Shown in pieces: positions 9,527 to 40,908 of a DNA stretch of 64,000 nt. Where the stretch lies: assembly GCA_965200955.1 (NCBI GenBank), contig OZ241742.1:2951072-3015071 (forward strand), read 5' to 3'. The stretch comes from Rhodothermales bacterium (GTDB lineage: Bacteria; Bacteroidota; Rhodothermia; Rhodothermales; Bin80). A program made the position numbers and the translations under genes. The notes under the pieces are model-generated. The model saw nothing but the letters and a program-made list of their open reading frames with translations. It did not search any database and was not told the DNA's origin. Each line of letters begins with the position of its first letter. The first letter of the stretch is position 1.

Positions 9527-9540
9527 CCTGAATTTCCAAC
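9527..9540. repeat. IS terminal inverted repeat (left)
   Basis: CCTGAATTTCCAAC is the exact reverse complement of 11525-11538. Confidence 0.8.
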
Positions 9541-9577
9541 CACGTTTTTTATGACGTTTCCCTTCGGATCTATCCGT

Positions 9578-11287: not shown

Positions 11288-11524
11288 AATAAAGTGTGAT
11301 TAAAATAAGAATACCAATATACTAATAAAATAACTAAAAACCAAAAAAAGGGGAATAAAAGGGTCAATGAGAGAAAAATATAGAAAAAATGGCTTAGATT
11401 TAATTTTTAGATTATTATTATATTAGTGATACTATAAATATAGTCACAAAAGAAAATGACAAATAAGACATGTGTCTGCACCATCATTGGTCCTAGACAC
11501 ACTGGAAGATCCTTTAAAGGTGGT

Positions 11525-11538
11525 GTTGGAAATTCAGG
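11525..11538. repeat. IS terminal inverted repeat (right)
   Basis: GTTGGAAATTCAGG is the exact reverse complement of 9527-9540. Confidence 0.8.
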
Positions 11539-11877
11539 CTACCGTTCTATGCCCCGTCTGGATCTACCCACAATGGTCTTTTTTGGACGATTCTCGGAAG
11601 ATTTGGCTCAACCATCAATCCAATCATTATGCTAACAGCTAATCTATTCACTTCTTCACGGTCTATCACCGCCCATACGTCAAAGCAGTTGTAGCAGAAA
11701 GTTTAAGCCTAAAAAATGTCCTGAGACGCGATGCAACTCAACATGAACGAAACCCAAAGTGGAAACTGCCGCCGTAAATCAGATAATGCCTCCTCGGAAT
11801 TTACTACACAAATTCGATGACTTTGGCCTCAGATACTCTCATCATGATATAGGACACCATCTGATTGAGTCAAGTAT

Positions 11878-14769
11878 TTAGAGTTGTTTGACAAATGCAA
11901 TGACATCGGCAAGTTCCTGCGGATCTCCAATTAAATCCTCGGGCATGGCGGATCGCGTGACAGGGGTTACACTGATGATATCAGACCGGATGAGGGTTTG
12001 ATCAGAATGCTCGTTCAACAGATAGAGGGCAGAAGCCGTTTCGGAAGCCACAACCCCCTGCAAGGTATCCCCCGAGACAGTCGCAATCTCCCACAATTCA
12101 TATCCCGTAGAAATCGCCTGAGAAGGCTTGATGATTGCAGCAGCGAGCATGGGCTCCGACCAGTGACGAACCGTACTTAGGTCGGGACCAAATCCTCTTG
12201 CATGGCAGGAAGCACAGACCGTAGCATACACCAGTGCACCCGATTCAATATCTCCATCCAAATCCGATGATGAAAGATCCACCGACTCATCCATGGTCCT
12301 CAGCAAAGCTCTCGCACGACTGCGCGTCGGCTCAGGAGTATCACGCATCAAGTAAACCCTGTGTCCCCATGATAATTCAGACGGAGATACAATCCCCGAT
12401 TCTAAGGCTTCAACAAAGAGATGAGCACGTACAGCTGTATTGAAGATGGGAAGAGCTTCATTCCTTAAACGGGGAGTCAAGCGTTCCCATTCTCCAAGGA
12501 TATGCTCTGCAACATGTACACCTTGACTAAAGCGTAAACCATGTAATACTTCAAGTTGAAGATCCAAGGGAGCATCCTGAGTAAACAACTGCAAGAGTAT
12601 ATTCGCATCAACCCTCGCTTTGGATAAGAGACGGACAGCACGAGTGCGTAGGTGTATAAGGGCCTGTTCGTCCTGAGCCAGAAGTCTTGATGTTTCTATC
12701 ACGACAGGGTCTAAAGCCTTAGAGGGTAATAAATCCAAAATGGCACTTGCGATAGCCTCATCTTCTGAGGCCCACATCCGATCAATCAACTGAGATGCTT
12801 GGTTTTCAGTGGGTACAACACTGGCAGAAGCCATTCCACGAAGTAAAGGGGCAAACCACCATTGACGATCCGCATTCTCAGTGAATAGTTGATCAAAAAG
12901 GATCTTCACATTCCTTTCTTGAACCATCGTTGCCGCAATCTTTTCCAGAAGTGCGGGCTGATCGGAGTGGCTCATGGCAGTGGAGAAAAGACGATCAGAG
13001 GGCATAGACAACTGTGCAGCAATCTGGACCCAGTGATCGTCCATGTCCTGCTGCAAAATCTCATCCTGCACAGAGAGCACCTCCTCGGAATCCATTCCCA
13101 TGATGCCCAGCGTTAGTAAGAGCTGATAACGAACTTGAGGATCAGGGTCATTCGCCATTTGGAGGAGGTGAGGACTCAGACTGCTCCATTGAGTTGAGTC
13201 CATTTCTGCAAGACGGATTGCATTTTCTCGAATTCGAGGATGGGCGTGCATCAATCCATTGAGAATGTCGTCTGTATGAAGAGCCCCCAACCCATGCAAA
13301 GTCCAGAGGGTATGAAGATTCCCCTCAGCAGACTGCTGCTGATCAAGATGCCTTCGGAGGTGAGTAATCGCTGACGTATCCTGGGCAGTGACAAGCATCC
13401 GCTGTGCAGTGAGTCTCCACCACCCATTTGGATCTGAGAGTCGTTCCACATACTGCTCTGCACTCATAGGCTCCATTGCATTGAGCCATGAGGGGGAGGA
13501 TGCACCTTCAGGAAAAACTCGATAAATTCTCCCCATTTGAATCCCCTGCTGCAGATCCCCAGCTGCAACCACGGCATCATCCATCCACTCTGGATGTTCA
13601 ACAATCTGCCGATAGTAATCCACCACATAGAGTGCACCATCCGGCCCAACACTAAAATTCACTGGGCGAAACCATCCGTCGGTAGAAGCTAAAAACTCGT
13701 GCCCCTCCGTGAGACGGGATGCCGTAAACACGCTTCCTGATGATCTAACCTGAGCTGCAAAGACCACATTATGAACGGGTTCTGCACTAAAGGTGACACT
13801 GCGATCATATGGGGCTGGAAATAAACCTCCATGATACCATGTGATCCCACAGGCGGATGTAAAAACTCCCCGATCTGTTAGTAATTGATGCTCTGGATCA
13901 ATCGTAATTGGAAAAACTCTCTCTTGTGGGCCGTGATCAAATGAATAATGGGCAGCTTCAGCAACGGCAACATTTAAGTTACGCTCCATATACCTGCCCG
14001 CTAAGGCCTCATGAAAAATAGGGTGGCTATTATCATTCAAAAAGTGATGTCCCCATTCATTAAACGTATGCCCAAACTGGCTTGAATTACTGCGCATTTC
14101 AAGTTCAAAAGAATCGGGTCGGAAGCGTACATTCCTGTCATGTGCGTTACGAGGAAGTCGGACGGCATCTGGTGCCGACGCGTAGTAAATTTCGCCTCCT
14201 GTGTCTCCAAAGGTATCGGCAAATTTTTCAGTCCATGACACAGTGCCGTAATTCGACAGATAGATCCAGTTATCAATCCCATAGAGAGGATTATTTACAT
14301 TGTACTGTGGGTTCGTGAGAGCAAATCCTGTCAGAATAACTTCACGAATATCTGAAATTCCATCTCCATCGGAATCCTCATAGTACAACACATCAGGTGC
14401 ATCGGTCACAAGTACACCGTCCTTCCAAGGCATGATGCCATTGGGTAGGGTTAAACCATGGGCAAAGAGGGTTGCTTGATCAGGGTAGCCATCACCATCT
14501 GTATCATGCAACATCTTAATACGCCCTGACCCGCTCGTGTCTAAGGGATACCCAGGCATCTCCACCACATACATCCTTCCTCGCTCGTCAACGGTCATGT
14601 CAACTGGATCCTGAATGAGAGGCTCCGAAGCAAATAACTCCACCTCAAACCCGTCTACGATCTCAAGCGTTTCCACGGATTGTTCTGGGCTGTAAGGAGG
14701 CCCTGAGGGCGGAGTGAATGAACAGCTCGCAACAGTGAAGGTAACGAAAAGCAAACAGAAACAGCGCAT
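11878..14769 (-). CDS. PVC-type heme-binding protein: membrane-bound-dehydrogenase-like beta-propeller + HEAT repeats + C-terminal cytochrome c (CxxCH)
   Basis: Has a signal/lipobox (VASCSF). EPLIQDPVDMTVDERGRMYVVEMPGYP matches the 'putative membrane-bound dehydrogenase domain'. A long helical repeat region follows, and VCASCHARG sits near the C-terminus. Confidence 0.7.
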   Translation of the reverse strand: MRCFCLLFVTFTVASCSFTPPSGPPYSPEQSVETLEIVDGFEVELFASEPLIQDPVDMTVDERGRMYVVEMPGYPLDTSGSGRIKMLHDTDGDGYPDQATLFAHGLTLPNGIMPWKDGVLVTDAPDVLYYEDSDGDGISDIREVILTGFALTNPQYNVNNPLYGIDNWIYLSNYGTVSWTEKFADTFGDTGGEIYYASAPDAVRLPRNAHDRNVRFRPDSFELEMRSNSSQFGHTFNEWGHHFLNDNSHPIFHEALAGRYMERNLNVAVAEAAHYSFDHGPQERVFPITIDPEHQLLTDRGVFTSACGITWYHGGLFPAPYDRSVTFSAEPVHNVVFAAQVRSSGSVFTASRLTEGHEFLASTDGWFRPVNFSVGPDGALYVVDYYRQIVEHPEWMDDAVVAAGDLQQGIQMGRIYRVFPEGASSPSWLNAMEPMSAEQYVERLSDPNGWWRLTAQRMLVTAQDTSAITHLRRHLDQQQSAEGNLHTLWTLHGLGALHTDDILNGLMHAHPRIRENAIRLAEMDSTQWSSLSPHLLQMANDPDPQVRYQLLLTLGIMGMDSEEVLSVQDEILQQDMDDHWVQIAAQLSMPSDRLFSTAMSHSDQPALLEKIAATMVQERNVKILFDQLFTENADRQWWFAPLLRGMASASVVPTENQASQLIDRMWASEDEAIASAILDLLPSKALDPVVIETSRLLAQDEQALIHLRTRAVRLLSKARVDANILLQLFTQDAPLDLQLEVLHGLRFSQGVHVAEHILGEWERLTPRLRNEALPIFNTAVRAHLFVEALESGIVSPSELSWGHRVYLMRDTPEPTRSRARALLRTMDESVDLSSSDLDGDIESGALVYATVCASCHARGFGPDLSTVRHWSEPMLAAAIIKPSQAISTGYELWEIATVSGDTLQGVVASETASALYLLNEHSDQTLIRSDIISVTPVTRSAMPEDLIGDPQELADVIAFVKQL

Positions 14770-15597
14770 TTATTGGTATAGTGTTTGGATTCCCCCTGAA
14801 AGTGTATACAGCTGTCTCACTTCATCTGGAGATAAATCTTTGTTAAAGAAAGAAAGGTCATCCATCTGTCCTCTATATTGTAATCCAAGACTTAAAAGAA
14901 CCTTACTCGCGTCCCATGTTAACTTCTGATCGCGTCCATGTAATTCGCCGACAAGTTCTCCATTTAGATAACCCTGAAAAACTGCGGTGTCTGCGTCGGT
15001 ATTGAACTTCCGAACAACCATCACAACATGAGTCCACGATTCACTGGAAAATGGATGATCGTCAATGGTGATCATGGGCATGACCCCAGGGGCCATGTCC
15101 TCCCATGGGTCTCCCTCTGGATTCCAAATGTGACGATCCGCAAATGCTGCTAACCGAAATTTTCGAGGTTGATTCCTGGTAAAGTCAACAAAAACGGATG
15201 CGTCATCCCAGCTACGCGGAGTCAGCATGATCGGATCCGACCACTCCCCTTCTGTCAAATCTTCATTTGGATCTACCTTAAGCCAAAATGAAATGGTCGC
15301 ATTCCAGTCCTGTTCTTGGTAAGCAACATTATCCATCCCCTTGAAAAAATAAGTAGCATCGGTATAGTCCGAAAAATGGAGTGCACCCCCAAACATCCCC
15401 CCATCCACAACAACAGACACTTCACTTTCAGATGGATCCGCAGGTACAGCACGATCAGAATCATCTAAGTTGTCAGCCTGATACAGAACAGGATCGCCCA
15501 TCGCAAATCTAGCCTCAAAGGTTGAATCAAAGGGGGCATGAAATGTGAGGGACTCTCCCAAAGAAGAAACCTGAATCAACAAAAGTAACAAAATCAT
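14770..15597 (-). CDS. secreted LamG/concanavalin-A-like lectin domain protein
   Basis: Has a signal peptide. GGALHF..., ATISFWLKV and LGLQYRGQMDDLSFFNKDLSPDEVRQLY fit the LamG jelly-roll pattern. Its stop abuts the next gene's start (14769/14770). Confidence 0.5.
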   Translation of the reverse strand: MILLLLLIQVSSLGESLTFHAPFDSTFEARFAMGDPVLYQADNLDDSDRAVPADPSESEVSVVVDGGMFGGALHFSDYTDATYFFKGMDNVAYQEQDWNATISFWLKVDPNEDLTEGEWSDPIMLTPRSWDDASVFVDFTRNQPRKFRLAAFADRHIWNPEGDPWEDMAPGVMPMITIDDHPFSSESWTHVVMVVRKFNTDADTAVFQGYLNGELVGELHGRDQKLTWDASKVLLSLGLQYRGQMDDLSFFNKDLSPDEVRQLYTLSGGIQTLYQ

Positions 15598-15754
15598 GTG
15601 GGGGCAAGGATCAACTGAAGATGGAAGGTCAAAGTAAGATGTTCATGACTGTTGGAAAGATACGAAATGATTTTTAAAGAAAATTGATCTCATGGTGTCC
15701 AAGGACTCCATGGATTCATTTGCATATCGTAGATCTACTATACATCATCATCCA

Positions 15755-16759
15755 TTACGAAACCCCTTCACTCATCTCAATCATGCGCTCAATCGGCTTT
15801 AATGCACGCCTTCGTATGGATTCTTCCATGGTGATTTCGGGTAATTCATGGTGCATGCACATGAAGAGTTTCTCAATGGTATTGAGTCGCATATGGGGAC
15901 ATTGGTTGCAATTACATCCACTTTCAGGAGGGGCAGCAATAAAGTGCTTCTGAGGAGAGTCTTTTCGCATCTGATGCAGGATTCCCTCTTCGGTGGCAAT
16001 GATGAATGAAGTGGTATCATTCTCTTTGGCATAGCGTCGAATTCCACTGGTGGATCCAATATAGTCTGCATGTCTCAGAACAGCCTCTTCACATTCTGGA
16101 TGTGCTAAAACTTTCGCATCAGGATGTTCCACTTTAAGGGTGAGTAATTTTCGCTCACTGAAGGTTTCATGAACAATACAGACCCCATCCCATATCGTTA
16201 ATTTCCTTTTGGTTTTCCGCTCAAGCCACCGGCCTAAGTTTCGATCAGGAGCAAAAATGACTGGCTGAGACTCTGGAATCATCCGTAATAAATGCTCAGC
16301 ATTGGTCGAAGTACAGATGATGTCGCTCCTGGCTTTGACCCCAGCAGAGCAGTTGATATAGGACATCACCAAGTGATCGGGATGCTGGTCACAAAATTCC
16401 GAAAATTCATCCGCCGGGCAGGTATCTGCAAGAGAACATCCTGCATTCAAGTCAGGAAGAATCACTTTTTTTTCGGGGGAGAGGATTTTGGCAGTTTCAG
16501 CCATAAAATGAACCCCAGCAAAAACAATGATGTCCGCTGATGTGGCAGACGCCTGCCGAGAGAGTCCTAATGAATCTCCAATAAAGTCAGCGACATCCTG
16601 AATCGCGGGCTCTTGATAGTAATGAGCCAGCAAGATCGCATTCTTCTTTTTTTTGAGAAGTTCAATCTCTTCGTAGAGATCAAGCGTGAGATCCACTGGA
16701 TCATCAACGAATCCTATTTGATCCGCTCTCTGCCGGAGCGATTGCATAGAGACCATCAT
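15755..16759 (-). CDS. nadA: quinolinate synthase
   Basis: [41 protein letters not shown], and conserved Cys contexts (AGCSLAD, INCSAG, CPHM). Confidence 0.9.
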
Positions 16760-16782
16760 GATTCATTTTGGGTTGAAAGTGA

Positions 16783-16796
16783 ACATGCTAGCATGT
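16783..16796. promoter_or_regulatory. 14-bp perfect palindrome ACATGCTAGCATGT in the nadA leader (candidate operator)
   Basis: Read directly from the sequence. It lies 24-37 nt upstream of the nadA ATG, in the 85-nt lolD-nadA spacer. A second near-palindrome TTGGAAATTCCAA sits at 16827-16839. Confidence 0.3.
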
Positions 16797-16844
16797 CAAC
16801 TCAAACCATTCAAGTTTGTGCCACTTTGGAAATTCCAACCGTCA

Positions 16845-17531
16845 TCAAGTTGTTTCTTCAAGAAGACGACCATCTTCCAATCTCAATACACGGTCACATA
16901 ACTGACTTAATACAGGGTTATGGGTCGCAATCACAAATGACTGTTGATACGTTTTGCTTAGATCAGAGATTTCTTCATGCAGAGCTGTAGCGGTTTTGGA
17001 ATCCAAACTGCCCGTAGGTTCATCGGCGAGCACCACAACGGGCTGGTTCATCAGTGCACGTGCCACAGCAACCCGCTGCTGTTCGCCCCCAGACAGTTCT
17101 GATGGACGATGGGTTAGACGAGAATCAAGCCCTAGTTGTGAGAGGAGCATCTTCGCACGGGGGCGTGCCTTGCGCAGTGAATCTCCACGGATCATGGCAG
17201 GCATGGCAACATTTTCAAGTGCACTGAATTCAGGAAGCAGATGATGAAACTGAAAGACAAAGCCAATCGATTGATTCCTCCATTGACTCAGAGATGCATC
17301 ATCCTGATCAAAAACATCTATCCCATTGTACAGGATGCGACCGTGATCGGGGCGGCCCAGAGCCCCTAGCATATGAAGCAATGTCGTTTTCCCCGTTCCA
17401 CTATCGCCAATAATAGCCACCATCTCTCCGGGGTGTACGTTCAGGGACACTCCCCTCAATACTTCAAGTCTGCCACCAGACCCCGTAGTAAAACCTTTAT
17501 GCACATTTTCTGCGGTCAGACTTGATGCCAT
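16845..17531 (-). CDS. lolD: ABC transporter ATP-binding protein, LolD/MacB-type
   Basis: Walker A GDSGTGKTT, signature LSGGEQQRVAVARAL, Walker B VVLADEPTGSLD. The symbol is assigned by family resemblance only. Confidence 0.75.
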   Translation of the reverse strand: MASSLTAENVHKGFTTGSGGRLEVLRGVSLNVHPGEMVAIIGDSGTGKTTLLHMLGALGRPDHGRILYNGIDVFDQDDASLSQWRNQSIGFVFQFHHLLPEFSALENVAMPAMIRGDSLRKARPRAKMLLSQLGLDSRLTHRPSELSGGEQQRVAVARALMNQPVVVLADEPTGSLDSKTATALHEEISDLSKTYQQSFVIATHNPVLSQLCDRVLRLEDGRLLEETT

Positions 17532-18787
17532 TAGAATCGGGTATTGACGACATTGGCAAACTTTGAACCAAAGGTATAGACAAATGCAATACTGGCGCTG
17601 AGCGTATAATCGGTGGCAAGTTCACGCTGCTGAAGCAGGATTTCTTCCAGCAACAGTTCACCAGCAGGTAACGAAAGCTGGTCACGGATCATTTCAAAAC
17701 GTGTTTGAAACTCCAGTGAAAATCCTTCAAACAGTCGGACAGAAACTGCGGTGTAAAACTCTGCACGCTGTTTGGAGGGGTCATGAAGATACTGGGATCC
17801 TTCAAGCCCACTAAATATATCCCCCCAAGGACGGCGTACAGCAACTCTGGCATCCAGTTCATGACGGGGCAGCCACTGCTGCAACTCACCAAAGATGGTT
17901 GTTTCAAAATAATCCGTGTAGGTCATCCCAATCTGATAGACAAAGGTGATGGCACGCCGGGTCGCTACATCATACGGAAAAAGACTATATTCAACACCCG
18001 GTACCAGCGATAGGGAATGCTTTAGATTCCGATCATTTCGCGTCACGTAGTCTAAAAATACTCCAACCGACCAATGAGGGCCAAGGCTTCGTATGACATA
18101 GCTGTCCAAACCATGGCGACTGATGCTGCTACGAACGGTTGGTCTGCCATCACGCTGAATGCGTACAAGATCATAATTAAAGTAAGGTCGGATTCTCGCT
18201 TTCCACTGCTCACTCCTATGATCTGCATAAAACCCCCAGCGAGAATCAAAAACAGTGCGATTGGATTCTAGATCCAATTCAAAATCTCCCCCATAAAGAT
18301 TGAAAACCCAGTGTTTCCATGGGTCTTCGGTTAGTACTTCGTCCGTCTCTGAATCATCGCGCTGCTGATACGTTAGTGATAGAATCTCAGGAACAGTGTC
18401 GTGTCCTACGAAAGGTGCCAGTCCTAATCGAATCGCATCATTAATGGTTTGACGCTGTTGGTCAGCAGAAGCATCCTGGGGGAGCACCCGTACGAGATTC
18501 AACTCTGATCCATCCAGAGTGCCACGCCCAATGAATGTGAGTTCATATTGTCCTCCCGCTAGGACGGTATTGCTTCGGGTAATGAAGATGTGCACATCTG
18601 CTTGACTGGGATCTCGTACATAATTCAGGAAATTTAATTCCGTTCGAATATGCAACTGGTCACAGCCATCACAATCTAGGTAAACACTTAGACGGTCGGC
18701 CGCAGATTCTTGGGCAACGATCACCGCTGGATGAAGCAGGGAGATTCCCAGAAAACCTATAATGAACACGGAAACTGCGATTCGCAT
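17531..18787 (-). CDS. outer-membrane beta-barrel protein of unknown function
   Basis: Has a signal peptide (…HPAVIVAQES), an alternating amphipathic pattern and a C-terminal ...VVNTRF (terminal Phe typical of OMPs). It shares 1-nt overlaps with both neighbours. Confidence 0.5.
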   Translation of the reverse strand: MRIAVSVFIIGFLGISLLHPAVIVAQESAADRLSVYLDCDGCDQLHIRTELNFLNYVRDPSQADVHIFITRSNTVLAGGQYELTFIGRGTLDGSELNLVRVLPQDASADQQRQTINDAIRLGLAPFVGHDTVPEILSLTYQQRDDSETDEVLTEDPWKHWVFNLYGGDFELDLESNRTVFDSRWGFYADHRSEQWKARIRPYFNYDLVRIQRDGRPTVRSSISRHGLDSYVIRSLGPHWSVGVFLDYVTRNDRNLKHSLSLVPGVEYSLFPYDVATRRAITFVYQIGMTYTDYFETTIFGELQQWLPRHELDARVAVRRPWGDIFSGLEGSQYLHDPSKQRAEFYTAVSVRLFEGFSLEFQTRFEMIRDQLSLPAGELLLEEILLQQRELATDYTLSASIAFVYTFGSKFANVVNTRF

Positions 18788-20172
18788 CAGGGTTGCAGGC
18801 CAAAGTCTTTCATTCGGGAACTCAACTGAGAGGGCTTGATGCCAATTTGTTTGGCAGTCGTGCTGACATTCCAGTGATTCTCATCCAGCTTTTGCTGAAG
18901 ATAGATCTGCTCAGCATGTTCACGAAAGCTAGAAAGGCTGTCGTGACCTGCAGCGACTGACTGCAACTGCCGTTTCATAGAGAATGCCGAAACGACCAGA
19001 CGCTGTACGTCACTCTTGGTAATTGATTCTTCTTCACAGAGGATCATGAGCCGCTCTACCACATTGCTCACCTCTCGGACATTTCCCTTCCATGGCAGCG
19101 ATGTCAGTTGATCCATTGCACTGGTGGTAAACTTCTTGGCAGGCAGTCCATTTCTTTTTGAAAGTTGGGTAGCAAAATGTTCAATCAGAGTCGGAAGATC
19201 TCCATGGCGATCTCTCACGGGAGGCATCGTGATCAGGATGACACTGAGTCTATGAAACAGGTCCTCACGAAAGTTACCCTCTTCAATTGCACTCTGCAGA
19301 TCTTTATTGGTCGCGGCAATCACACGCACATCCACATTAATGGTACGCTGGCCTCCTACTCTCGTAATCTGATTTTCCTGTAGAACGCGTAGGACTTTGG
19401 CCTGTGCAGACAAGCTCATATCGCCAATCTCATCCAGAAATAGCGTCCCACCATGAGCTTGTTCAAATTTGCCAATCCGTTGGCGATTTGCTCCCGTAAA
19501 GGAGCCTTTTTCATGCCCAAAAAGCTCACTCTCAATCAGTTCGGCGGGGATGGCGGCACAGTTTACTTCCACCATAGGCCCCTCATGGCGAGAACTTTGA
19601 GCATGTAACCACCGTGCGGCTAATTCTTTTCCGGTACCGGCTTCTCCCGTGATTAGGACTCTTGCATCCGTAGGTGCAACACGAGCAATGAGTTCCTTGA
19701 CCGATTGCATCGCAGGACTCTTCCCAATCATGGGCATCAAAGCGTGATGGGACTGCTGACTTAACGCCTGTTTTAGCCGCTGATTTTCAGTGACGATTTT
19801 TCCGCGTTCCAAGGCAGATCGAACCGTGACCAATAGATGCTGCAGATCTGGTGGCTTTTCAATAAAATGGAAGGCACCTGAGTGGGTTGCTTCTACAGCA
19901 GTCTTAATGTCTGCATGGCCACTAATCATGATCACTGGCAATTCAGGCCATGTCTCAACGCATTTTGAGAGTACTTCCAATCCATCCATCTTTGGCATTT
20001 TGATGTCTAAAAGCACCACATCAAATGTTTTCTTTCGGAGCTCAGCCAAAGCTATTTCCCCATTGGATGCCTCATGAACTTCAAACGATTCGTACTCCAG
20101 GATCTCGCGAAGTGTTCTTCGAATACTTTGCTGATCATCAACAATGAGCACGCGGGGAGAAGCCATGTTCAA
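18787..20172 (-). CDS. sigma-54-dependent response regulator (NtrC family: REC + AAA+ + Fis-type HTH)
   Basis: REC domain (VLLDIKMPKMDG, GAFHFIEKP). AAA+ domain with GEAGTGKE, the GSFTGA (GAFTGA-type) loop and TLFLDEIGD. The C-terminal HTH is WNVSTTAKQIGI. Confidence 0.9.
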   Translation of the reverse strand: MNMASPRVLIVDDQQSIRRTLREILEYESFEVHEASNGEIALAELRKKTFDVVLLDIKMPKMDGLEVLSKCVETWPELPVIMISGHADIKTAVEATHSGAFHFIEKPPDLQHLLVTVRSALERGKIVTENQRLKQALSQQSHHALMPMIGKSPAMQSVKELIARVAPTDARVLITGEAGTGKELAARWLHAQSSRHEGPMVEVNCAAIPAELIESELFGHEKGSFTGANRQRIGKFEQAHGGTLFLDEIGDMSLSAQAKVLRVLQENQITRVGGQRTINVDVRVIAATNKDLQSAIEEGNFREDLFHRLSVILITMPPVRDRHGDLPTLIEHFATQLSKRNGLPAKKFTTSAMDQLTSLPWKGNVREVSNVVERLMILCEEESITKSDVQRLVVSAFSMKRQLQSVAAGHDSLSSFREHAEQIYLQQKLDENHWNVSTTAKQIGIKPSQLSSRMKDFGLQP

Positions 20173-20879
20173 GACTGACGGGCGAGAACCATCCCCAACA
20201 TGTAATTGAATTCGTCAAGTAAATCGGTTTCTGGATAATTCTCCTTGGCTTCAAGGATCACTTCCTTGGCGGAATCCAGTTCACCCGACTCTACATAGGC
20301 TCGTGCAGCCGATCGTAAGTAGTAGGGAGCACGAATCACATTGTCATCATCCATATCTGCAGCACGCCGAAACAGATCAGCTGCCATGAGATACTCTCCT
20401 TGCAGTTCTAAAATGGCAGCACGGCCAGCGATCGCACTGGCTCCGAGAAAATCGTCACTCGCCTTGTAATCCGTAAAGTGCTCCAGTGCCAAATCAAACT
20501 CATTCAATTCAAAATGAGCATTGGCGGCATAAAAGCGAGCAGTATTGCCCGCGGGAGTACTCCCATAACGAGCTACAATATCCGTGAGACCGAGGATGTC
20601 TCCACTGCCGTCTAGGGCAATGCGATAGTTGGACCGTTCATACTCAAGGAGAATCCCTCCAAGAAACTCCTGTGCTTGGGTGTTACGAGTATCTTGAATA
20701 TAATTGTAGCCAACGATCCCCGCAATGATTAGGACGACACCTATCGCCATTACAGTGAGCAGTCTTCTGCTCTGAAGATAAAATGCAAGCAATGGTGTGT
20801 ACCAGCTTGACTTAGACTCAGATTGACTGCTACGTCTTGTGTTCATTGCTCCCTGAGGAGCCTTCATGGTTTTCATCAA
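20169..20879 (-). CDS. membrane-anchored TPR protein (YfgM-like)
   Basis: One N-terminal TM helix (LLTVMAIGVVLIIAGIVGY) is followed by TPR-like helical repeats. It overlaps the downstream regulator by 4 nt. Confidence 0.45.
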   Translation of the reverse strand: MMKTMKAPQGAMNTRRSSQSESKSSWYTPLLAFYLQSRRLLTVMAIGVVLIIAGIVGYNYIQDTRNTQAQEFLGGILLEYERSNYRIALDGSGDILGLTDIVARYGSTPAGNTARFYAANAHFELNEFDLALEHFTDYKASDDFLGASAIAGRAAILELQGEYLMAADLFRRAADMDDDNVIRAPYYLRSAARAYVESGELDSAKEVILEAKENYPETDLLDEFNYMLGMVLARQS

Positions 20880-21324
20880 AGGAAGAGGTTACATGAATCA
20901 AAAAGAAAGGATCTCAGGTGGCATAGAGACGATGCCAACCAGATGAGAAAAACGTGGAGACATCAAGTGAGTGATGTGACCAGTCGTCGCTTTCTCAATG
21001 AATACAACAGTAATAATTGATTATTGCTCTTATACGGAGATGATCCTGAATTGTAACCATGAACCGATAAGCAACCGTTCAAGACACCCATCAGTGATTC
21101 AATACGTTTTATAGCAATTCATCTACTATCAATGATCAATAGCAATGATGTGAAACCACTGGTACAGGATCAGGTCGTAGAGTGCATCATTTTCCGAATT
21201 GGTGCGTTATACGGTTTTCTGTTGAAAATGCTCACATTGTAGTCTCCATTTGGGAGGTGCCTCTCATCAAGGACATGCGGCTTTTCTACATCTCATTACA
21301 CTTCTTTCTACACCAATTAAACTT

Positions 21325-22335
21325 ATGGCTCATAAACTTGCTATTAATGGTTTCGGTCGGATTGGCCGTCTCACGCTTCGTTCCATCCTAGAACGCAAGC
21401 TTACCGCCTTTGATGTTGTCGCTGTCAATGATTTGACCGATGCAGCTACCCTCGCTCATTTATTTAAGTATGACTCCGTTCACGGAAAGTGGCCTGGTCA
21501 TGTCTCAGCCCAAGGAGACAATCTTTGCATTGATGATCTTACGATTCCAGTACTAAGTGAAAGAGATCCTTCCAATTTGCCTTGGCAATCATTCCATTGT
21601 GATGTTGTCATTGAATCAACCGGCTTTTTCCGTGATCGAGCTAGCGCTGGCAAACACCTGAGTGCTGGTGCCAAGAAGGTTGTGATCTCAGCCCCTGCCA
21701 AGGATCAAGTGGATGCAACGGTCGTTCTTGGTGTCAACGATCATGTCCTCACGGGTCAAGAGACGATCATTTCGAATGCGAGCTGCACAACAAACTGTAT
21801 TGCTCCGATGATCAAAGTTCTTGACGAAGCTTATGGGATTCAGAGTGGACTGATGACCACCGTTCACGCCTACACCAGTGATCAGCGTATCCAAGATGCA
21901 CCCCACAAAGATCTTCGACGTGCCCGTGCGGCTGCCTACTCTATTGTACCAACAACTACAGGTGCCGCTAAGGCGGTTGGTCTTGTGCTCCCACATATGC
22001 AGGGGAAACTTGATGGTATGGCTTTGCGAGTTCCCATTCCGAACGGCTCCCTCACTGATCTGACGGTTCAGGTTTCATCATCTCCTTCCAAAGAAGAGGT
22101 GAATTCCGAATTTAAGGCTACTGCCAGTGATTCATTAAAAGGAATCTTGGAGTACTCAGCAGAACCCATTGTGTCCATTGACATTGTGCATAATGCCCAT
22201 TCTGTGATTTTTGATAGCTTAGCAACCATGGTCCAAGGAAACACCATCAAGGTATTGGGCTGGTACGATAATGAGTGGGGATATGCTAACCGGGCCGTTG
22301 ACATTGCAGCACTCTTGGTCTCAAAGAGTAGCTGA
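21325..22335 (+). CDS. gap: glyceraldehyde-3-phosphate dehydrogenase (type I)
   Basis: MAHKLAINGFGRIGRL at the ATG at 21325; the ORF-track start at 21250 is an upstream extension. The active site is SNASCTTNC. The gene ends in TGA. Confidence 0.95.
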   Translation: MAHKLAINGFGRIGRLTLRSILERKLTAFDVVAVNDLTDAATLAHLFKYDSVHGKWPGHVSAQGDNLCIDDLTIPVLSERDPSNLPWQSFHCDVVIESTGFFRDRASAGKHLSAGAKKVVISAPAKDQVDATVVLGVNDHVLTGQETIISNASCTTNCIAPMIKVLDEAYGIQSGLMTTVHAYTSDQRIQDAPHKDLRRARAAAYSIVPTTTGAAKAVGLVLPHMQGKLDGMALRVPIPNGSLTDLTVQVSSSPSKEEVNSEFKATASDSLKGILEYSAEPIVSIDIVHNAHSVIFDSLATMVQGNTIKVLGWYDNEWGYANRAVDIAALLVSKSS

Positions 22336-33524: not shown

Positions 33525-33701
33525 TTAACAGCGACCGTATGATCTTCTTTCTCAGATAGGTTCAGCATCAAGCGATGATCATCACTGATATAGTGAGATC
33601 GTTTGTAATGCCCATCCAAGCATCTACAAAATTTGGAGAATTAGTATTCAATTGCTAAATACGGATCAATTTACCTGTCTCTGTAATCACTCACACGACA
33701 A

Positions 33702-36005
33702 TTAAGATGTTAGTGACTGGAGACCGGATGCCTCAGAAATAAATTGCTGAAGTGTACTCCCCGAATTATCAACAAGTTTGTCTATTTCAGACAGAGAAAG
33801 CTTTAAACGATATTTAGGGTTGGAATGATCGACAGATTCCACAAGATGTATCTTTTCTAATTTCGGGAGAATTTTGTTTATAAAATGGCTTGACTGACTA
33901 CCTAATCGAAGAGTAATGTCATTGCGATTTATTGTGGTTGACCGATTGAACATCCGAATAAAACGCAATGTTGTTTTCACATCAGGATCAATGTTAAATT
34001 CCGTGGGTGATTCAAGGACCTCATCCTGAGGTGTTTTAAACCTGATATCAATACCTTTATTCCTTAAGACCGCACGCACATGAGTTGGATTGAAAATTTT
34101 TTGGTGATCTTCTTCCTCACCATTGCCAACCGATACTGAATCAAAAATACAATTTTCGAAAACTGTGCCGTCAAATCTAGGTCTTGAACGATCATCAAAT
34201 ATGAGCTCTGTAAAACGACAGTCATGGAACTGACTGTCAATAAAGATGGAATCATCTAAACTTGTTGAGCCAAACAGAGAGTCATGTACGCTAAGCCCAC
34301 GAATCTCGCGTTGCTGTAGAGAGTTCGGGGGGAAATTCGTTTCAGAGATTTTATATGGATTTGTTGCATGTCGTAATAATTCTAGTATAAGTGTTCCACA
34401 ATTTTCTCTGAAGTAAGATACCCTCGGCTTTTCTTGAGATAAATGTTCTAGGTCTGTGAGAATGTTATCAATTGTGATTGTGTCTTGATTATTTGTCAGA
34501 AAACGGGTTGCTTCAAGGATGACGGACTTGCTCAGAGCATTAGCATTTAAAATTAACCTTGCGTCTGATTTTTCAGATTTAATCAGTGACCGACCAAGAG
34601 CTTGTCCTAAATAAAATTCCAGAAAATCCTCATGATCAAAGCGAATTCTAGATTGTCGCGTAGGGCCCTGCGATTTATCCTCCCGAAGGAGTGAATGATC
34701 TTTGATTCGTCTACATATCTGTCTTTCCACATTAGAACTGAGATTATTCTCGGCTGTGAAAAACTCTATAACCAGTTCTATAATATCAAATCGAAGGGAA
34801 TCTACTGCATTGACCCACATTTCAGAAGCAATCTGTGAGAGCAATTTGTGATGTTGGTCAATTGTAAGGAGCGGAGAGTGATCAATCCCTGAACGATCAA
34901 TCCATTTATCTTGTGCCTCACGCTTAACTATGACTTCAATAAACTCGAAAAAGTAATCAACCTGCGTCTGACCAAGTTTTTCCAAGAATTTTTCTAAATC
35001 ATCATCTTCTTTCGCTACATCAATGAGTCTACGAACGAGTACGGCTCTTGTGAGCACTGGATGTTTTGAACTGTTGAGCCGTTTTTTTACGCGTTTGTAA
35101 AGCAGATCTGGGTTGGGTACACCGCGAAGTGATGCATATTTTGAAAAAACTTGACGATCCCATCTGTTGAGAACGAATCTCTGAATTTTTACATCATGAT
35201 CAGATCCAATAGATTCAAGTAATTTTGCTTGAGAATTTAGCGATTGATCGAAATATGCTTTTCGAGCTGCAATGAGTAGCGTACCAGATGAGGACAACTG
35301 ATCTACAAGATGCCCAAGAGCAGAGACTGCTTCAGTAGAACTCACATCTACAAGCACTTCTTCAAACCCATCAAATGCTGGAATAATTGCATTCATTTTT
35401 ATGAGTTCAATAAATGAATCATAGTATAAGTATGGAAATCGTAGCCGATTCATCAAAGAGGCAATCACAACATCATCAAAGCGCAGGAAAGATCTACCAC
35501 CAAGAGCAACTGGGAGAATTAATGTACTGGTTTTTTTGTTCTTGAATGCAAGGGCCTGTTCAATAGAAATTTTTTCAATCAAGGATGTTTTACCTTCTCC
35601 CGCATCAGAAGTGAGAAAATTAATTAATGTCATACCAGCGTGAAAATTCGTCAAACGCTTTCGCAAATGAGCAATAGAATCAATTGATTGATCTGTTTTC
35701 ACAGGCTCATTTTTCCAATCAAGTAGGTTAACATTTGGGGACACATAATTTTCCGGGGGTTGAATATAGTCAATAATACGCTGTGCAAGCATATCTATCT
35801 TCGCCAAATATGAGAATATCCAAGATCTTGCATAGCTCTCAACTCCATTATGAATGACAATCACACCATGCTGAGGATCGTTTTTGATCTCAGCTTCAAC
35901 TGGTTTACCTCGAATAAACATGAGTAGGTTGCCTTCGTCAACAACCATCTCGTTTTCTTGGTCTGTAAATGTGGTAACAATACGTTTGAAATCTTGGAAT
36001 TGCAT
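33702..36005 (-). CDS. NACHT-like (STAND) P-loop NTPase with pentapeptide repeats and a possible C-terminal winged-helix domain; N-terminal ~130 aa unknown
   Basis: Walker A is FLTSDAGEGKTSL (about 35583-35620). The NACHT-type Walker B is IIPAFDGFEEVLV, followed by LLIAARKAYF. Six consecutive xxFxx pentads read SLFGS TSLDD SIFID SQFHD CRFTE LIFDD. The gene starts 11 nt after the NYN gene stop. Confidence 0.6.
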   Translation of the reverse strand: MQFQDFKRIVTTFTDQENEMVVDEGNLLMFIRGKPVEAEIKNDPQHGVIVIHNGVESYARSWIFSYLAKIDMLAQRIIDYIQPPENYVSPNVNLLDWKNEPVKTDQSIDSIAHLRKRLTNFHAGMTLINFLTSDAGEGKTSLIEKISIEQALAFKNKKTSTLILPVALGGRSFLRFDDVVIASLMNRLRFPYLYYDSFIELIKMNAIIPAFDGFEEVLVDVSSTEAVSALGHLVDQLSSSGTLLIAARKAYFDQSLNSQAKLLESIGSDHDVKIQRFVLNRWDRQVFSKYASLRGVPNPDLLYKRVKKRLNSSKHPVLTRAVLVRRLIDVAKEDDDLEKFLEKLGQTQVDYFFEFIEVIVKREAQDKWIDRSGIDHSPLLTIDQHHKLLSQIASEMWVNAVDSLRFDIIELVIEFFTAENNLSSNVERQICRRIKDHSLLREDKSQGPTRQSRIRFDHEDFLEFYLGQALGRSLIKSEKSDARLILNANALSKSVILEATRFLTNNQDTITIDNILTDLEHLSQEKPRVSYFRENCGTLILELLRHATNPYKISETNFPPNSLQQREIRGLSVHDSLFGSTSLDDSIFIDSQFHDCRFTELIFDDRSRPRFDGTVFENCIFDSVSVGNGEEEDHQKIFNPTHVRAVLRNKGIDIRFKTPQDEVLESPTEFNIDPDVKTTLRFIRMFNRSTTINRNDITLRLGSQSSHFINKILPKLEKIHLVESVDHSNPKYRLKLSLSEIDKLVDNSGSTLQQFISEASGLQSLTS

Positions 36006-36016
36006 CTGACTGATAT

Positions 36017-36719
36017 TTACAATCTTTTTAGGGAATAGTGCTCACTACGAAGTTTTCTGAAAGGATTGCCTCGCCTCCTAATAGATTTGGGGATGAAGTG
36101 GATTAATTCAACATGATTGATAAGTGCATATCGAATGCCAGGCCACATATCATCATCTCCAGATACCAAAACAACAGGTTCTTTTGTAAACATGGACAAA
36201 TGAACTAAATCTGTAACGATCATTGAATCCACAAGTTTCTGTTCAGTCCTGTAAAAAGTGTCATCTGGTGTTACACTACATTGATCATGACCACAGATTT
36301 TTCTACGAAAAAAATGAATGTACCCCTGAGAGATAGCATTGACCCTTATCAACGCAGTGTGCGAAAGGAAAACTTTCTAATCTTAGAGGTGGCAGGTTTG
36401 ATCGAGTTCTAAATGTATTTGGAAAATGATTTCCTTCATCACATATTAGAGATGTAGCCAATTCGGGCCGATTAATTTTTATTTTTTGACCTAATACTTG
36501 AACCACTCGCGGAAAACTCCTCTTTATTTGACCAGATAACTTTGATGCTAAGGGTGTCAACTTATATCCTCTATATAACCATCCTCCATACAATCTGCAC
36601 TGTGAAACTTGTGAATCAGAAATTGAGACTGGAGATTTTTCCAGTATTTGTTCTATAATGTTAATGAGTCTCATTTCTTTTAGTCTTCCCAAGTTATCAT
36701 AGTCAATCAGAATGGTCAT
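36017..36719 (-). pseudogene. NYN/LabA-like (PIN-fold) nuclease with Cys4 zinc-ribbon-like insert, split by a +1 frameshift in an A7/T7 run
   Basis: MTILIDYDNL and RLYGGW are NYN N-terminal motifs. HCVDKGQC...SFF then changes frame at 36308-36314 to RRKICGHDQC...EQKLVDSMIVTDL...VVLVSGDDDMWPGIRYA (NYN C-terminal motifs). Removing one A restores a 233-aa ORF. Confidence 0.6.
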
Positions 36720-36783: not shown

Positions 36784-37794
36784 TCAAACTTCAACAAAAT
36801 CTCGTCTAACAGCATGAGCAACTTGCTGAAGCTGAACAAATAAGTCAAAAAACTGATCAAGCCTCAGAACCTGCAATCCCCTTTCAGATGCACTGAGCAA
36901 GTCATCATGTCCATCTATGATCGCACCAGCCCCAACGGCCCCAGATGACAATGGAACGACGTAATCCCGAATGCCTACTCCTTGAGAGGGATCTACGATC
37001 ACGGGGAGATGACTTTTGGCTTTCGCAACCGAAACCCCAGAAAGATCAAGAGTATGCCGTGTGGCAACCTCAAAGGTACGAATCCCTCTCTCACACAAAA
37101 TGGCTTGCGAATTACCTGATTTCATGATGTACTCTCCTGACTTGATTCACTCTTGTATAGTCGTAGCCAAACCATATTAAAGTAACTCTGTCCGATAATT
37201 TCTACCAATGCACGCAAGAACTCAAAATTCCGATATAACGAGTTCCCACTTTAAAGTACTCGCATCATTACCAAATTGATCCATGGACTCAGTGGAATCA
37301 ACTTCTAAGATCAGTTTAACTCACATTCAGTAGCTACCTGACACTCCATTTCAACGCTTCCTCTGGATCTGTTGATACTCATGGAACGATGTGTGAGGCT
37401 TGACCATACTTGCACGAATCACAGATACACCTAATAAGACTATCTGAGTAAAACTATCTTTTGAAATTACTCTGTACATTCAATACTTGATAATGCTCCC
37501 ATCAAAATGACTATATTCCCCCACCCCAGTCTGAAATCCATCCACATCAATAATGGATGAATTGGAGCGGCCAGCACGACTGGCTAGTTTTTAGAGTTCG
37601 GTAACGCGTTGCACCTCAGCAACACCACGAAAATTGTTAATGATTCTGTAATCAAATCCAGGCCAAACCATATTAATCCTTAGTACGTTTGGCTGACTCC
37701 ACTGGAACAATGAATCAAACCCAAAGGCATTTAAGTTGGTGATAACGGCTTCAACTTCTTCTTCCGAAGCATGATTTTTCACGATAACAACCAT
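36784..37794 (-). pseudogene. aroF: type I-beta DAHP synthase with N-terminal ferredoxin-like regulatory domain, heavily decayed but still co-linear
   Basis: The N-terminal MVVIVKNHASEEEVEAV... resembles the Thermotoga-type regulatory domain. The middle reads KLASRAGRSNSSIIDVDGFQTGVGEYS...RASMVKPHTSFHEYQ (cf. GGAYKPRTSPYSFQG) with several stops. The C-terminal AILCERGIRTFEVATRHTLDLSGVSVAKAKSHLPVIVDPSQ is preceded by ATTIQE-TGA-IKSGEYI. Confidence 0.8.
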
Positions 37795-40657: not shown

Positions 40658-40835
40658 GGAATTAATCAGATATGATCATCCAGAGGATTTAAGAGGTCAT
40701 CACTATCGCTCAGTATTCTGTCGAGAATGCAATACAAGTGTGTATTGCCACCCCATCACCTTGTGCACTGTCTATTGTAAGTCATTCTTTGGCACGCTGA
40801 ATGATGAGATCAGCGTTCACAAATGTACATAAATG

Positions 40836-40908
40836 AGCGGGAAACGAGACTTGAACTCGCGACCTTCTGCATGGCAAGCAGATGCTCTACCAACTGAGCT
40901 ATTCCCGC
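40836..40908 (-). tRNA. tRNA-Gly (anticodon GCC)
   Basis: The minus strand reads GCGGGAATAGCTCAGTTGGTAGAGCATCTGCTTGCCATGCAGAAGGTCGCGAGTTCAAGTCTCGTTTCCCGCT. It folds as a cloverleaf, with anticodon loop TTGCCAT. CCA is not encoded. Confidence 0.9.

Follow-up and report, generated by a model that had tools for sequence, protein, structure and literature searches.

The 64,000-nucleotide stretch of the Rhodothermales bacterium genome analyzed here (hereinafter the window; contig OZ241742.1 of assembly GCA_965200955.1) contains a cassette of two co-directional genes flanked by prfA (PCRF and RF-1 domains) and by two DAHP-synthase fragments. This arrangement agrees with an earlier note on the same DNA, which described two genes 11 nt apart between prfA and a dead aroF. 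The upstream gene (gene 1) encodes an NYN-like protein and the downstream gene (gene 2) an NLR-like NTPase. The features discussed below are the following:

33702-36719, minus strand: the cassette (gene 1 and gene 2)
36017-36719, minus strand: gene 1, frameshifted; NYN-like nuclease carrying a Cys4 insert, ORFs 36303-36719 (138 aa) and 36017-36352 (111 aa), repaired product 233 aa
36278-36356, minus strand: Cys4 module C122-x5-C128 ... C142-x4-C147, an insertion into the NYN fold that presumably binds zinc
36308-36314, minus strand (A7 on plus): T7 homopolymer whose one additional base splits gene 1
36006-36016, minus strand: operon junction, an 11-nt spacer from the stop codon of gene 1 to the ATG of gene 2, read from the sequence
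33702-36005, minus strand: gene 2, NLR-like (NACHT-type STAND) NTPase, intact ORF of 767 aa
35640-36005, minus strand: N-terminal domain, aa 1-122, beta-sheet and helices; specific to the family, proposed as the surface at which the NYN protein docks or is activated
34971-35648, minus strand: NTPase core, aa ~120-345, with the highest conservation in the family (0.76)
35586-35609, minus strand: Walker A, DAGEGKTS, aa 134-141 (G136-E-G-K139-T140); G136, G138, K139 and T140 invariant in 54 homologues
35358-35384, minus strand: Walker B, FDGFEEV, aa 211-217 (D212-G-F-E215-E216); D212, G213 and E215 invariant, E216 in at least 90%
within the NTPase core, minus strand: candidate sensor-1 residue R248
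34362-34970, minus strand: helical and winged-helix region, aa 346-548, with helical/WHD-like secondary structure
34632-34640, minus strand: F456-D457-H458 motif, invariant columns
34086-34361, minus strand: pentapeptide-repeat beta-helix, aa ~549-640, presumed sensor; short regular strands in the model
33702-34085, minus strand: alpha/beta domain at the C-terminus, aa 641-767, with a possible winged-helix-like fold; belongs to the variable half

Both genes are beyond chance occurrence, with full-length homologues of each protein numbering in the hundreds, and the motifs picked out in the earlier note from the letters of this single genome turned out to be invariant or near-invariant columns of the respective families (54 homologues for gene 2 and 70 for gene 1).

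Gene 1 contains all the proposed NYN/LabA hallmarks (ILIDYDNL, RLYGGW, EQKLVD and LVSGDDDMWP) as well as the C-x5-C...C-x4-C module. The residues D6, Y44-G-G-W47, Q160-K-x-V-D164 and S186-x-D188-x-D190 are invariant among the 70 homologues, including the PIN-like acidic positions D6, D164, D188 and D190, and D8, N9 and D189 are each retained in at least 90%. The Pfam NYN profile (PF01936) matches 52 of the 70 homologues (best E 2e-7), and precomputed matches to this profile exist for several gene 1 homologues; the repaired window protein itself scores below the threshold (E 0.0075, 17.2 bits against 24.2). In the structural model of gene 1 (pLDDT 88, alpha/beta fold), the best named matches in BFVD are LabA-like/NYN proteins, with E-values of only 0.02-0.2, and comparison with the PDB, by sequence or by Foldseek, yields no significant match. 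The family-level profile matches, the invariant acidic motifs and the named structural matches all support the NYN assignment. The protein shares with NYN/LabA-like PIN-fold nucleases (PF01936) the pattern D-x-D-N, (E)QKxVD and SxDDD but differs from them in the Cys4 insert of ~40 residues and in its constant pairing with a STAND gene. Within the insert, all 70 homologues have C122, C128 and C142, and at least 90% have C147; the model has pLDDT values of 70-86 across this stretch, and the module presumably binds zinc. By analogy, we propose that gene 1 encodes a metal-dependent NYN (PIN-like) endonuclease, the substrate of which is most likely RNA, so that it would be an RNase.

The window copy of gene 1 is split at an A-run, as the earlier note had implied. 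The DNA alignment with two related contigs, L001 and L002, both of which have T6 at this run and an intact 233-aa gene 1, reveals one extra T as the only indel in the gene; full-length, 233-aa homologues (P0121 and P0243, 95% identical) are also available. Such a +1 frameshift in a homopolymer means that the local effector copy is either recently inactivated or mis-assembled, and the window copy of the cassette may be inactive. That it is a decaying, non-functional relic is a serious possibility to which we give slightly less credence than to its opposite: the frameshift ends gene 1 after 138 aa, ahead of the EQKLVD and SGDDD catalytic motifs, the adjoining aroF is down to two fragments, and related Rhodothermales genomes show recurrent nuclease knock-outs. 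However, the frameshift is the sole lesion and gene 2 is intact; L001 is 97% identical to the window overall, and across the 300 nt past the frameshift, only ~3 substitutions separate the window copy from the intact gene of L001. An assembly error is plausible, given that the extra base is part of a homopolymer in a 4.19-Mb single contig; further one-base differences from L001 are also located at short runs, and the U7 run could conceivably permit low-level transcriptional slippage. The relic explanation concerns this genome only and is compatible with the interpretation of the family developed below.

More than 1062 homologues of gene 2, about 750-770 aa in length, were identified. The AlphaFold model of the protein (pLDDT 82.6, pTM 0.73) finds its best Foldseek matches in the PDB among animal NLRs, namely NLRC4 (E 6e-14), NOD2 (8e-13) and NLRP3 (1e-10), accompanied by NLRP9 and NAIP5 (E 6e-14 to 1e-9 for the set); the top 44 matches are all NLRs, and Cdc6/ORC first appears at 2.8e-8. 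The alignments with NLRs span ~720-770 columns at 10-13% identity, with TM-scores of only about 0.36, lowered by the way the domains are oriented and by a repeat domain of another type. These alignments extend over the helical and winged-helix region, including H458, a putative equivalent of the ADP-contacting WHD histidine of NLRs. The Walker B motif of gene 2 fits the NACHT signature D[GAS]hDE defined by Kibby et al. (10.1101/2022.07.19.500537), with Glu, not Asp, in the first acidic position. The fold and the motifs thus bear out the NACHT-like reading proposed in the earlier note, whereas the Pfam NACHT profile (PF05729) does not match the window protein and matches only one of the 54 homologues (E 0.004), compared to 10 of the 54 for nSTAND_NTPase5 (PF25199) and 7 for AAA_16. 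Because the NACHT profile misses the window protein and the sequence profiles tilt slightly to nSTAND5, any clade assignment within the STAND class is tentative; we call gene 2 NACHT-like on account of its fold and motifs, without claiming proven membership of the NACHT clade.

The N-terminal domain is specific to this family. It contains the invariant residues F6, R8, F13, D15, W62, L73-A74 and R76-I77, and when 1.84 billion representatives were searched with its profile, no more than 229 clusters (50% identity) contained it; among the best 150 matches listed, it occupies residues 1 to ~122 of ~745-770-aa proteins, with the exception of short fragment proteins in which it is located at or near the start. 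Thus, the gene 2 family is compact, with one fixed architecture. These 122 aa match no recognizable enzymatic family; the domain shows no similarity to gene 1, and no CARD, PYD or other adaptor is common to the two proteins.

The beta-helix that follows the winged-helix region consists of six clean pentapeptides (SLFGS TSLDD SIFID SQFHD CRFTE LIFDD), the number originally counted, and about 3-4 looser ones. The assignment was corroborated by the family profile, which matches McbG-like 2xt4 (E 9e-6), MfpA (2bm4, 6e-5) and Qnr in the PDB, and by Pfam Pentapeptide_4 matches in 23 of the 54 members. The beta-helix is the only feature in common with Qnr, MfpA, McbG and the Hailong protein HalA, all of which lack a STAND NTPase or NYN partner: Qnr and MfpA are stand-alone DNA mimics, and HalA, a defense effector with such repeats, is a channel protein with a nucleotidyltransferase partner. 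The C-terminal domain is modeled with four helices (674-684, 694-718, 738-747 and 752-766) and two strands (722-724 and 731-734) and, judging from the model, is possibly winged-helix-like; it shows only weak profile matches to DUF4898, and neither the window protein nor the 54 homologues match a recognized HTH family of Pfam in this region.

Comparison of related strains shows that the sensor half of gene 2 has been swapped by recombination. The gene is 97-98% identical to its L001 counterpart at the nucleotide level in the N-terminal and NTPase parts, compared to 78% in the pentapeptide region and 82% in the C-terminal domain. Two strains whose flanks are 98-99% identical show a dS of 0.04-0.09 over aa 1-349 and of 0.69-0.84 over aa 431-767, with dN/dS values alike in both halves (about 0.17).

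The two genes form an obligate, co-diverging pair. Gene 1 lies directly upstream of gene 2, on the same strand, in 84 of the 86 loci anchored on gene 2, the two exceptions being a contig edge and a degraded gene 2; conversely, all 55 metagenome loci anchored on gene 1 with room for a neighbor carry gene 2 directly downstream, starting within 400 nt on the same strand. The pairwise identities of the two proteins are strongly correlated (r = 0.88, Mantel 0/999), and in tandem divergent paralogous pairs, each gene 2 keeps its own nuclease. The nuclease gene has been knocked out repeatedly with gene 2 left intact, by an ISL3 element in L014 and an IS4-type element in L027, and is interrupted also in L009, L011, L016 and L025, in addition to the window frameshift. 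A strict, co-inherited pair with recurrent loss of the nuclease, low G+C and patchy spread, adjoined on one viral contig by a Panacea-type antitoxin gene, is what might be expected of a toxin-antitoxin or addiction module, in which the ATPase would restrain a toxic NYN nuclease and persistence would be due to post-segregational killing, not to invader sensing. We consider this explanation distinctly unlikely: known antitoxins are far simpler than an NLR-fold protein of 767 aa that has a repeat sensor, the 72,556 plasmids searched, where addiction modules are common, contain no homologue, and swapping of the sensor half alone fits a receptor, not an antitoxin; furthermore, toxin-antitoxin and abortive-infection roles can coexist.

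The pair is patchily distributed over at least 13 phyla, including culturable Proteobacteria, and it has a lower G+C content than its flanks in 76 of 80 loci (median difference -7.6 points), as is the case in the window, where the cassette has 37.9% G+C compared to 43.6-45.1% in the 5-kb flanks. The low G+C supports the horizontal acquisition suggested in the earlier note, but a recent acquisition is too simple a reading because five further species-level genomes of Rhodothermales have the cassette at the same aroF-prfA site. Known mobile elements rarely carry the pair, given that no homologue was found in the plasmids mentioned above, in 50,697 phage genomes or in E. coli, and that 2.9 million IMG/VR contigs yielded only 5. 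In a P2-like prophage, the pair is flanked by an integrase fragment on one side and by the tail genes gpD, gpU and tape-measure on the other, and on another viral contig, the pair adjoins the Panacea antitoxin and a portal gene.

The defense-island association proposed for the pair was borne out strongly. The pair is inserted between hsdS and hsdR of type I restriction-modification (RM) operons in five loci (L067, L073, L078, L079 and L085) and adjoins type I RM genes in four (L037, L043, L055 and L072); the neighbor proteins of ~46 loci, analyzed in two batches, include complete type I RM sets (restriction endonuclease, methyltransferase and specificity subunit) 7 times and a type I methyltransferase 11 times. 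Other neighbors are Abi_2, TIR, DarT with Macro (DarTG), RhuM and YhcG, and an acidobacterial locus has a DUF1156 methylase, a HEPN protein and an SNF2 helicase close to the pair. For reference, Lee et al. 2026 (10.64898/2026.01.04.697583) give 0.015 as the background for a random gene to lie within 5 kb of a defense system.

This distribution makes it very improbable that the cassette is a cellular regulatory module, with gene 2 a MalT/AfsR-like STAND regulator acting through a winged-helix-like C-terminus and gene 1 a LabA-like RNase of host RNA metabolism. STAND NTPases do include transcription regulators, as noted in Lee et al. 2026 (10.64898/2026.01.04.697583), the C-terminal domain could be winged-helix-like, and the site by prfA and ribosomal protein genes is the same in all six Rhodothermales genomes. 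However, the pair is sporadic across phyla and, outside Rhodothermales, shows no conserved housekeeping neighbors; it is embedded in a prophage hotspot and in RM operons of type I, its G+C is systematically low, tandem divergent paralogues exist, IS inactivation is frequent, and the C-terminus lacks a recognized HTH family match.

Searches of the reference collections agree with the earlier impression that the pair belongs to no named system. PADLOC 2.0.0 assigned none of the three ORFs to a family, NCBIfam 20.0 returned only an 18-bit match of the pentapeptide region to HalA (cut-off 250), and Pfam offers no family-level name for either protein. Two members of the gene 2 family, WP_101098484.1 and WP_108463373.1, are among the 656 curated defense-related STAND NTPase seeds of Lee et al. 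2026 (10.64898/2026.01.04.697583), so that the sensor family, although apparently unnamed, is catalogued and not wholly novel; the text of that work and the part of its supplement that was searched link no Avs number or phage trigger to it.

Among the characterized systems, bNACHT proteins (Kibby et al. 2023, 10.1101/2022.07.19.500537) have in common with gene 2 the NLR-like NTPase fold matches, the D[GAS]hDE-type Walker B and a C-terminal region that varies among close relatives, and both pentapeptide repeats and nucleases are listed among their sensor and effector domains. Unlike the N-terminally fused effectors of bNACHT, the effector here is encoded by a gene of its own, which is strictly co-inherited; the N-terminal domain of gene 2 is found only in its own family, the Pfam NACHT profile misses the window protein, and none of the tested bNACHT sequences tabulated by Kibby et al. 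contains the motifs of the family. With Avs proteins (Gao et al. 2022; Lee et al. 2026, 10.64898/2026.01.04.697583), the cassette shares the effector/STAND NTPase/C-terminal sensor logic and the location in defense islands, whereas most Avs, as described in the latter source, combine TPR-like helical-repeat sensors with fused effectors, in contrast to the beta-helix sensor and separate nuclease seen here. In animal NLRs, the best structural matches, the recruitment of effectors via CARD or PYD would be analogous to the action of gene 1 in trans, but the sensors are LRRs, in place of which gene 2 has pentapeptide repeats, and the two proteins of the cassette share no CARD or PYD.

The folds, the motifs and the strict pairing support the Avs/bNACHT-type logic of a sensor NTPase with a separate nuclease effector that had been put forward for this locus, and the cassette looks like an unnamed anti-phage defense system. 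From sequence and genomic context, we consider it probable that this is a two-gene, NLR/Avs-type immunity operon directed against phages or other mobile elements, in which the sensor activates a separate NYN nuclease. By analogy with the systems above, gene 2 would serve as both sensor and switch, its C-terminal half (beta-helix and terminal domain) binding an invader-derived ligand; binding would release the ADP-locked NACHT-type NTPase, allowing nucleotide exchange and oligomerization of gene 2, and the clustered N-terminal domains would then bind or activate the gene 1 nuclease, which would degrade RNA and so stop the growth of the infected cell or the replication of the invader. Contact between the two proteins is inferred from their co-inheritance, the sole support for this step. 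A more specific, inflammasome-like version, in which the pentapeptide beta-helix, having the fold of the DNA mimics Qnr and MfpA, would bait a phage DNA-binding protein, the NTPase would oligomerize, the N-terminal domain would recruit the Zn-ribbon NYN RNase in trans and specificity would be renewed by allelic swapping of the sensor half, is rather unlikely to hold in full.

If the immunity interpretation is correct, the cassette would represent a distinct architecture in bacterial NLR-like immunity, with a beta-helical (pentapeptide) sensor replacing TPRs or LRRs and with a nuclease recruited in trans via a family-specific N-terminal domain instead of being fused to the receptor. It would also provide a simple two-protein model of NLR oligomerization switching on a separate effector, and the presence of homologues in culturable Proteobacteria makes the family experimentally tractable. 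The recurrent nuclease knock-outs, possibly including the window copy, suggest a measurable autoimmunity cost, and the swapping of the sensor half between strains is a natural case of receptor specificity being reshuffled.

The two genes lie on the minus strand, with 11 nt between the end of gene 1 and the ATG of gene 2, and are flanked by prfA (PCRF and RF-1) and two DAHP-synthase fragments, the co-directional layout beside a dead aroF that had been read from the sequence in the earlier note:

33702-36005, minus strand: gene 2 (putative sensor ATPase), intact ORF, 767 aa
36017-36719, minus strand: gene 1 (NYN-like nuclease), split into ORFs 36303-36719 (138 aa) and 36017-36352 (111 aa)
36308-36314, minus (coding) strand: T7 run in gene 1 (A7 on the plus strand), site of the frameshift
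36784-37125, minus strand: aroF (DAHP synthase) remnant, 113 aa, corresponding to the catalytic domain
37591-37794, minus strand: aroF remnant, 67 aa, corresponding to the ferredoxin-like domain

Gene 1 reads as two ORFs because of the seven T residues in this run; deletion of one T in silico yields a 233-aa product whose full length aligns with homologues of 233 aa. One homologue, P0121, is 95% identical to the repaired protein, and another, P0243 (MCY4001216.1), adjoins MCY4001217.1, which is more than 90% identical to the gene 2 protein. In a DNA alignment, two related contigs carry T6 where the window has T7; this is the sole indel in gene 1 and is followed by only about 3 substitutions in the 300 nt downstream, and therefore the lesion is either a very recent mutation or a homopolymer error. 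The window comes from a single contig of 4.19 Mb. Further 1-base indels separate the window from the closely related contig L001 (at approximately 45775, 45734, 44003, 41452, 41111, 40543, 29141, 29126 and 26768, several in short homopolymers); these could be real differences or assembly errors in homopolymer length and thus bear on the genuineness of the frameshift. For the copy in this genome only, a dead relic is a reading that we take seriously without favoring it. The aroF gene is fragmented likewise in L001; at the same position, it is intact (340 aa) in locus L007, and full-length homologues (338-344 aa) are present in L008, L010, L011 and L015. A scan for sigma-70 promoters and terminators gave no difference from shuffled sequence. 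A tRNA-Gly(GCC) gene (40835-40908, minus strand) is located about 4 kb from the cassette, with no evident connection to it.

Four lines of evidence establish that gene 1 and gene 2 form a genuine pair. Of 86 loci retrieved through gene 2 (80 from species-representative genomes), 84 have a gene 1 homologue immediately upstream in the same orientation; the two exceptions are a contig edge and a locus with a degraded gene 2. Reciprocally, 65 metagenome loci were collected with gene 1 as the anchor; 55 have sufficient room, and in each of these gene 2 starts no more than 400 nt downstream. Loci with more similar gene 1 proteins also have more similar gene 2 proteins (pairwise identities, r = 0.88; Mantel test, 0/999). 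Finally, L008 contains tandem pairs (9283-16318) in which each sensor is accompanied by its own nuclease; with identities of just 48% between the gene 2 copies and 43% between the gene 1 copies, these are old paralogues. Duplicate pairs within one genome, tandem or nearby, were also found in L015 and L018, and L047 has gene 1 in the opposite orientation to gene 2.

The repaired gene 1 protein itself scores 17.2 bits against the Pfam NYN profile, below the 24.2 threshold; at the family level, however, PF01936 is matched by 52 of 70 homologues (best E-value 2e-7). Residues D6, Y44-G-G-W47, T102, R104, Q160-K-x-V-D164 and S186-x-D188-x-D190 are invariant in the family, including the acidic motifs, and the inserted cysteine module previously noticed is conserved as well (C122, C128 and C142 invariant, C147 in at least 90% of the sequences). 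PADLOC and NCBIfam scans of the protein returned nothing usable, the family profile had no match among PDB sequences, and a Foldseek search of the structural model against the PDB gave no significant match.

The gene 2 protein contains a Walker A region, DAGEGKTS (aa 134-141), and a Walker B region, FDGFEEV (aa 211-217). Single-sequence comparison with Pfam, and searches of NCBIfam, PADLOC and PDB, detected only weak pentapeptide matches, and an exact look-up of the window's own product found no record. More than 1062 homologues make up the family; almost all are 745-775 aa long, and every one is annotated as 'hypothetical'. In the family alignment, G136, G138, K139 and T140 of Walker A and D212, G213 and E215 of Walker B are invariant, as are H315, T319, F456, D457, H458 and N535, and R248 and E216 are kept in at least 90% of the sequences. 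The protein also contains an FDHxxFxEF motif that we take to resemble the winged-helix histidine motif of NLRs. The AlphaFold model computed from the family alignment (pLDDT 82.6, pTM 0.73) matches NLRC4 (E-value 6e-14) and NOD2 (8e-13), followed by NLRP3, NLRP9 and NAIP5, with weaker Cdc6/ORC matches appearing first at about 1e-8. The DGFEE sequence of Walker B agrees with the NACHT signature D[GAS]hDE (Kibby et al., 10.1101/2022.07.19.500537). Among 54 family members, nSTAND_NTPase5 is matched by 10, AAA_16 by 7 and NACHT by a single one. Thus, the protein can be assigned with confidence to the STAND NTPases and is termed NACHT-like by fold and motif, an assignment that is less clear at the level of sequence profiles; the NACHT-style Walker motifs originally proposed are present.

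Outside the NTPase, the six clean pentapeptides pointed out before (SLFGS TSLDD SIFID SQFHD CRFTE LIFDD, followed by looser ones) belong to a beta-helix at aa ~549-640, supported by profile comparisons with PDB (McbG-like protein 2xt4, E-value 9e-6; MfpA, 6e-5) and Pfam (Pentapeptide_4 in 23 of 54 members). The last 127 residues, for which a wHTH had been proposed, form an alpha/beta domain that matched no family and might be winged-helix-like. The first 122 residues, already singled out as an unfamiliar N-terminus, are a conserved domain; searching 1.84 billion representative proteins with its profile retrieved only 229 clusters. In the best 150 matches listed, this domain always occupies residues 1 to ~122 of ~745-770-aa proteins, except for short fragment proteins with the domain at or near the start; therefore, the architecture is fixed rather than modular, and re-use in other architectures was not seen among these matches. 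An adaptor (EAD-like) domain common to the two proteins was ruled out (hhalign probability 0.15%).

The pair is present in at least 13 phyla, its hosts including Bacteroidota, Acidobacteriota, Binatia, Thermodesulfobacteriota, Gemmatimonadota, alpha-, beta- and gamma-Proteobacteria, Spirochaetota, Latescibacterota, Planctomycetota, Verrucomicrobiota, Lentisphaerota, Myxococcota and Bacillota. In 76 of 80 loci, the pair is poorer in G+C than its flanks (median difference -7.6 points), and in the window its G+C content is 37.9% versus 43.6-45.1%, in line with the horizontal acquisition suggested earlier. A fresh arrival in this lineage is not what is observed, however: the pair lies between aroF (intact there) and prfA in five further species-level Rhodothermales genomes and is therefore long-resident. 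Across loci, the neighbors are otherwise unrelated, and the expectation that the two genes would be found together within defense islands was borne out. In 5 loci, the pair separates hsdS from hsdR in a type I restriction operon, and in 4 more it adjoins such an operon; Abi_2, TIR, DarT with Macro, RhuM and YhcG genes lie alongside, and an acidobacterial locus has a DUF1156 methylase, a HEPN protein and an SNF2 helicase close by. Five IMG/VR contigs bear the pair, among them a P2-like prophage (UViG 2511231013_000001, 7141-21657), where it has an integrase fragment on one side and the tail genes gpD, gpU and tape-measure gene on the other, and a viral contig (L152, 6035-14294), where it adjoins a Panacea-domain antitoxin, an IS1 fragment and a T4-like portal gene. 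In these surroundings, a cellular STAND regulator with an RNase appears very improbable as an account of the pair. Searches of PLSDB plasmids and INPHARED phages with gene 2 (tblastn) and of E. coli genomes with the Lonsdalea copy (blastn) gave no match, and a homology search from a Cronobacter seed fragment yielded fragments only.

Comparison with L001 reveals a sharp mosaic boundary:

33525-34700, minus strand for gene 2: 3' half of gene 2 with the adjoining prfA-side spacer, 70-82% identical to L001 within surroundings that are 97-99% identical

Identity is 98-99% in the housekeeping flanks and 97-98% in the segments of gene 2 for its N-terminal part and the NTPase, versus 75-82% from approximately residue 430 through the C-terminus and into the downstream spacer. 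The dS increases from 0.04-0.09 to 0.69-0.84 (~8-fold) with dN/dS remaining at ~0.17, which indicates that the sensor half was replaced by recombination with a divergent allele; positive selection in situ is ruled out because it is dS, not dN/dS, that rises. A second small divergent patch (36500-36650, gene 1 codons ~25-75; 86.7% versus ~99% identity in the remaining gene 1) may be another recombination tract.

In several genomes, gene 1 is independently interrupted with gene 2 whole:

L014, 8596-9819: ISL3-family transposase; gene 2 intact
L027, 8465-9625: IS4-type DDE transposase; gene 2 intact
L009, 8532-9775: 1.2-kb insert without a recognizable transposase; gene 2 intact

Gene 1 is also split in L011, L016 and L025. 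Such recurrent interruptions fit a costly effector, and some of the splits could be long-read assembly errors. An addiction or toxin-antitoxin module is a rather unlikely reading of the pair, and we continue to regard it as more probably a defense operon.

Neither protein is named by any model of PADLOC 2.0.0 or NCBIfam 20.0, and no description of a system combining NYN, NACHT and pentapeptide repeats was found in the literature searched. The bNACHT sensor and effector domains include pentapeptide repeats and nucleases, and the gene 2 family motifs are absent from all bNACHT sequences tested in that study (Kibby et al., 10.1101/2022.07.19.500537). In the available parts of the STAND survey of Lee et al. 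2026 (10.64898/2026.01.04.697583), two clear family members, WP_101098484.1 (Stenotrophomonas) and WP_108463373.1 (Cronobacter sakazakii), are among the 656 seed NTPase domains, described as 'previously predicted defence-related STANDs', and neither NYN nor pentapeptide repeats nor two-gene operons come up in the main text. Thus, as far as found in these parts, the sensor family is catalogued already, yet not named or characterized. Seed 67 in Supplementary Table 1 of that survey (MCE2559043.1, Acidobacteria) has a similar NTPase layout (GAGKT ... PIIDGFDELL ... ASARSTYFDF) and, by these motifs, looks like a sister family of gene 2.

Collectively, the original observation and its interpretation are upheld: the pair is a well-supported candidate defense operon with the familiar logic of a STAND sensor and a nuclease, in a previously undescribed arrangement of a trans-encoded putative Zn-ribbon NYN effector and a pentapeptide-repeat sensor with a private N-terminal domain. 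By analogy with NLRs, Avs and bNACHT proteins, the C-terminal half of the gene 2 protein would bind an invader-derived ligand, upon which the NTPase would exchange ADP for ATP and oligomerize; the clustered N-terminal domains might then bind the NYN nuclease or switch it on, and this enzyme, probably an RNase, would halt the infected cell or the invader.
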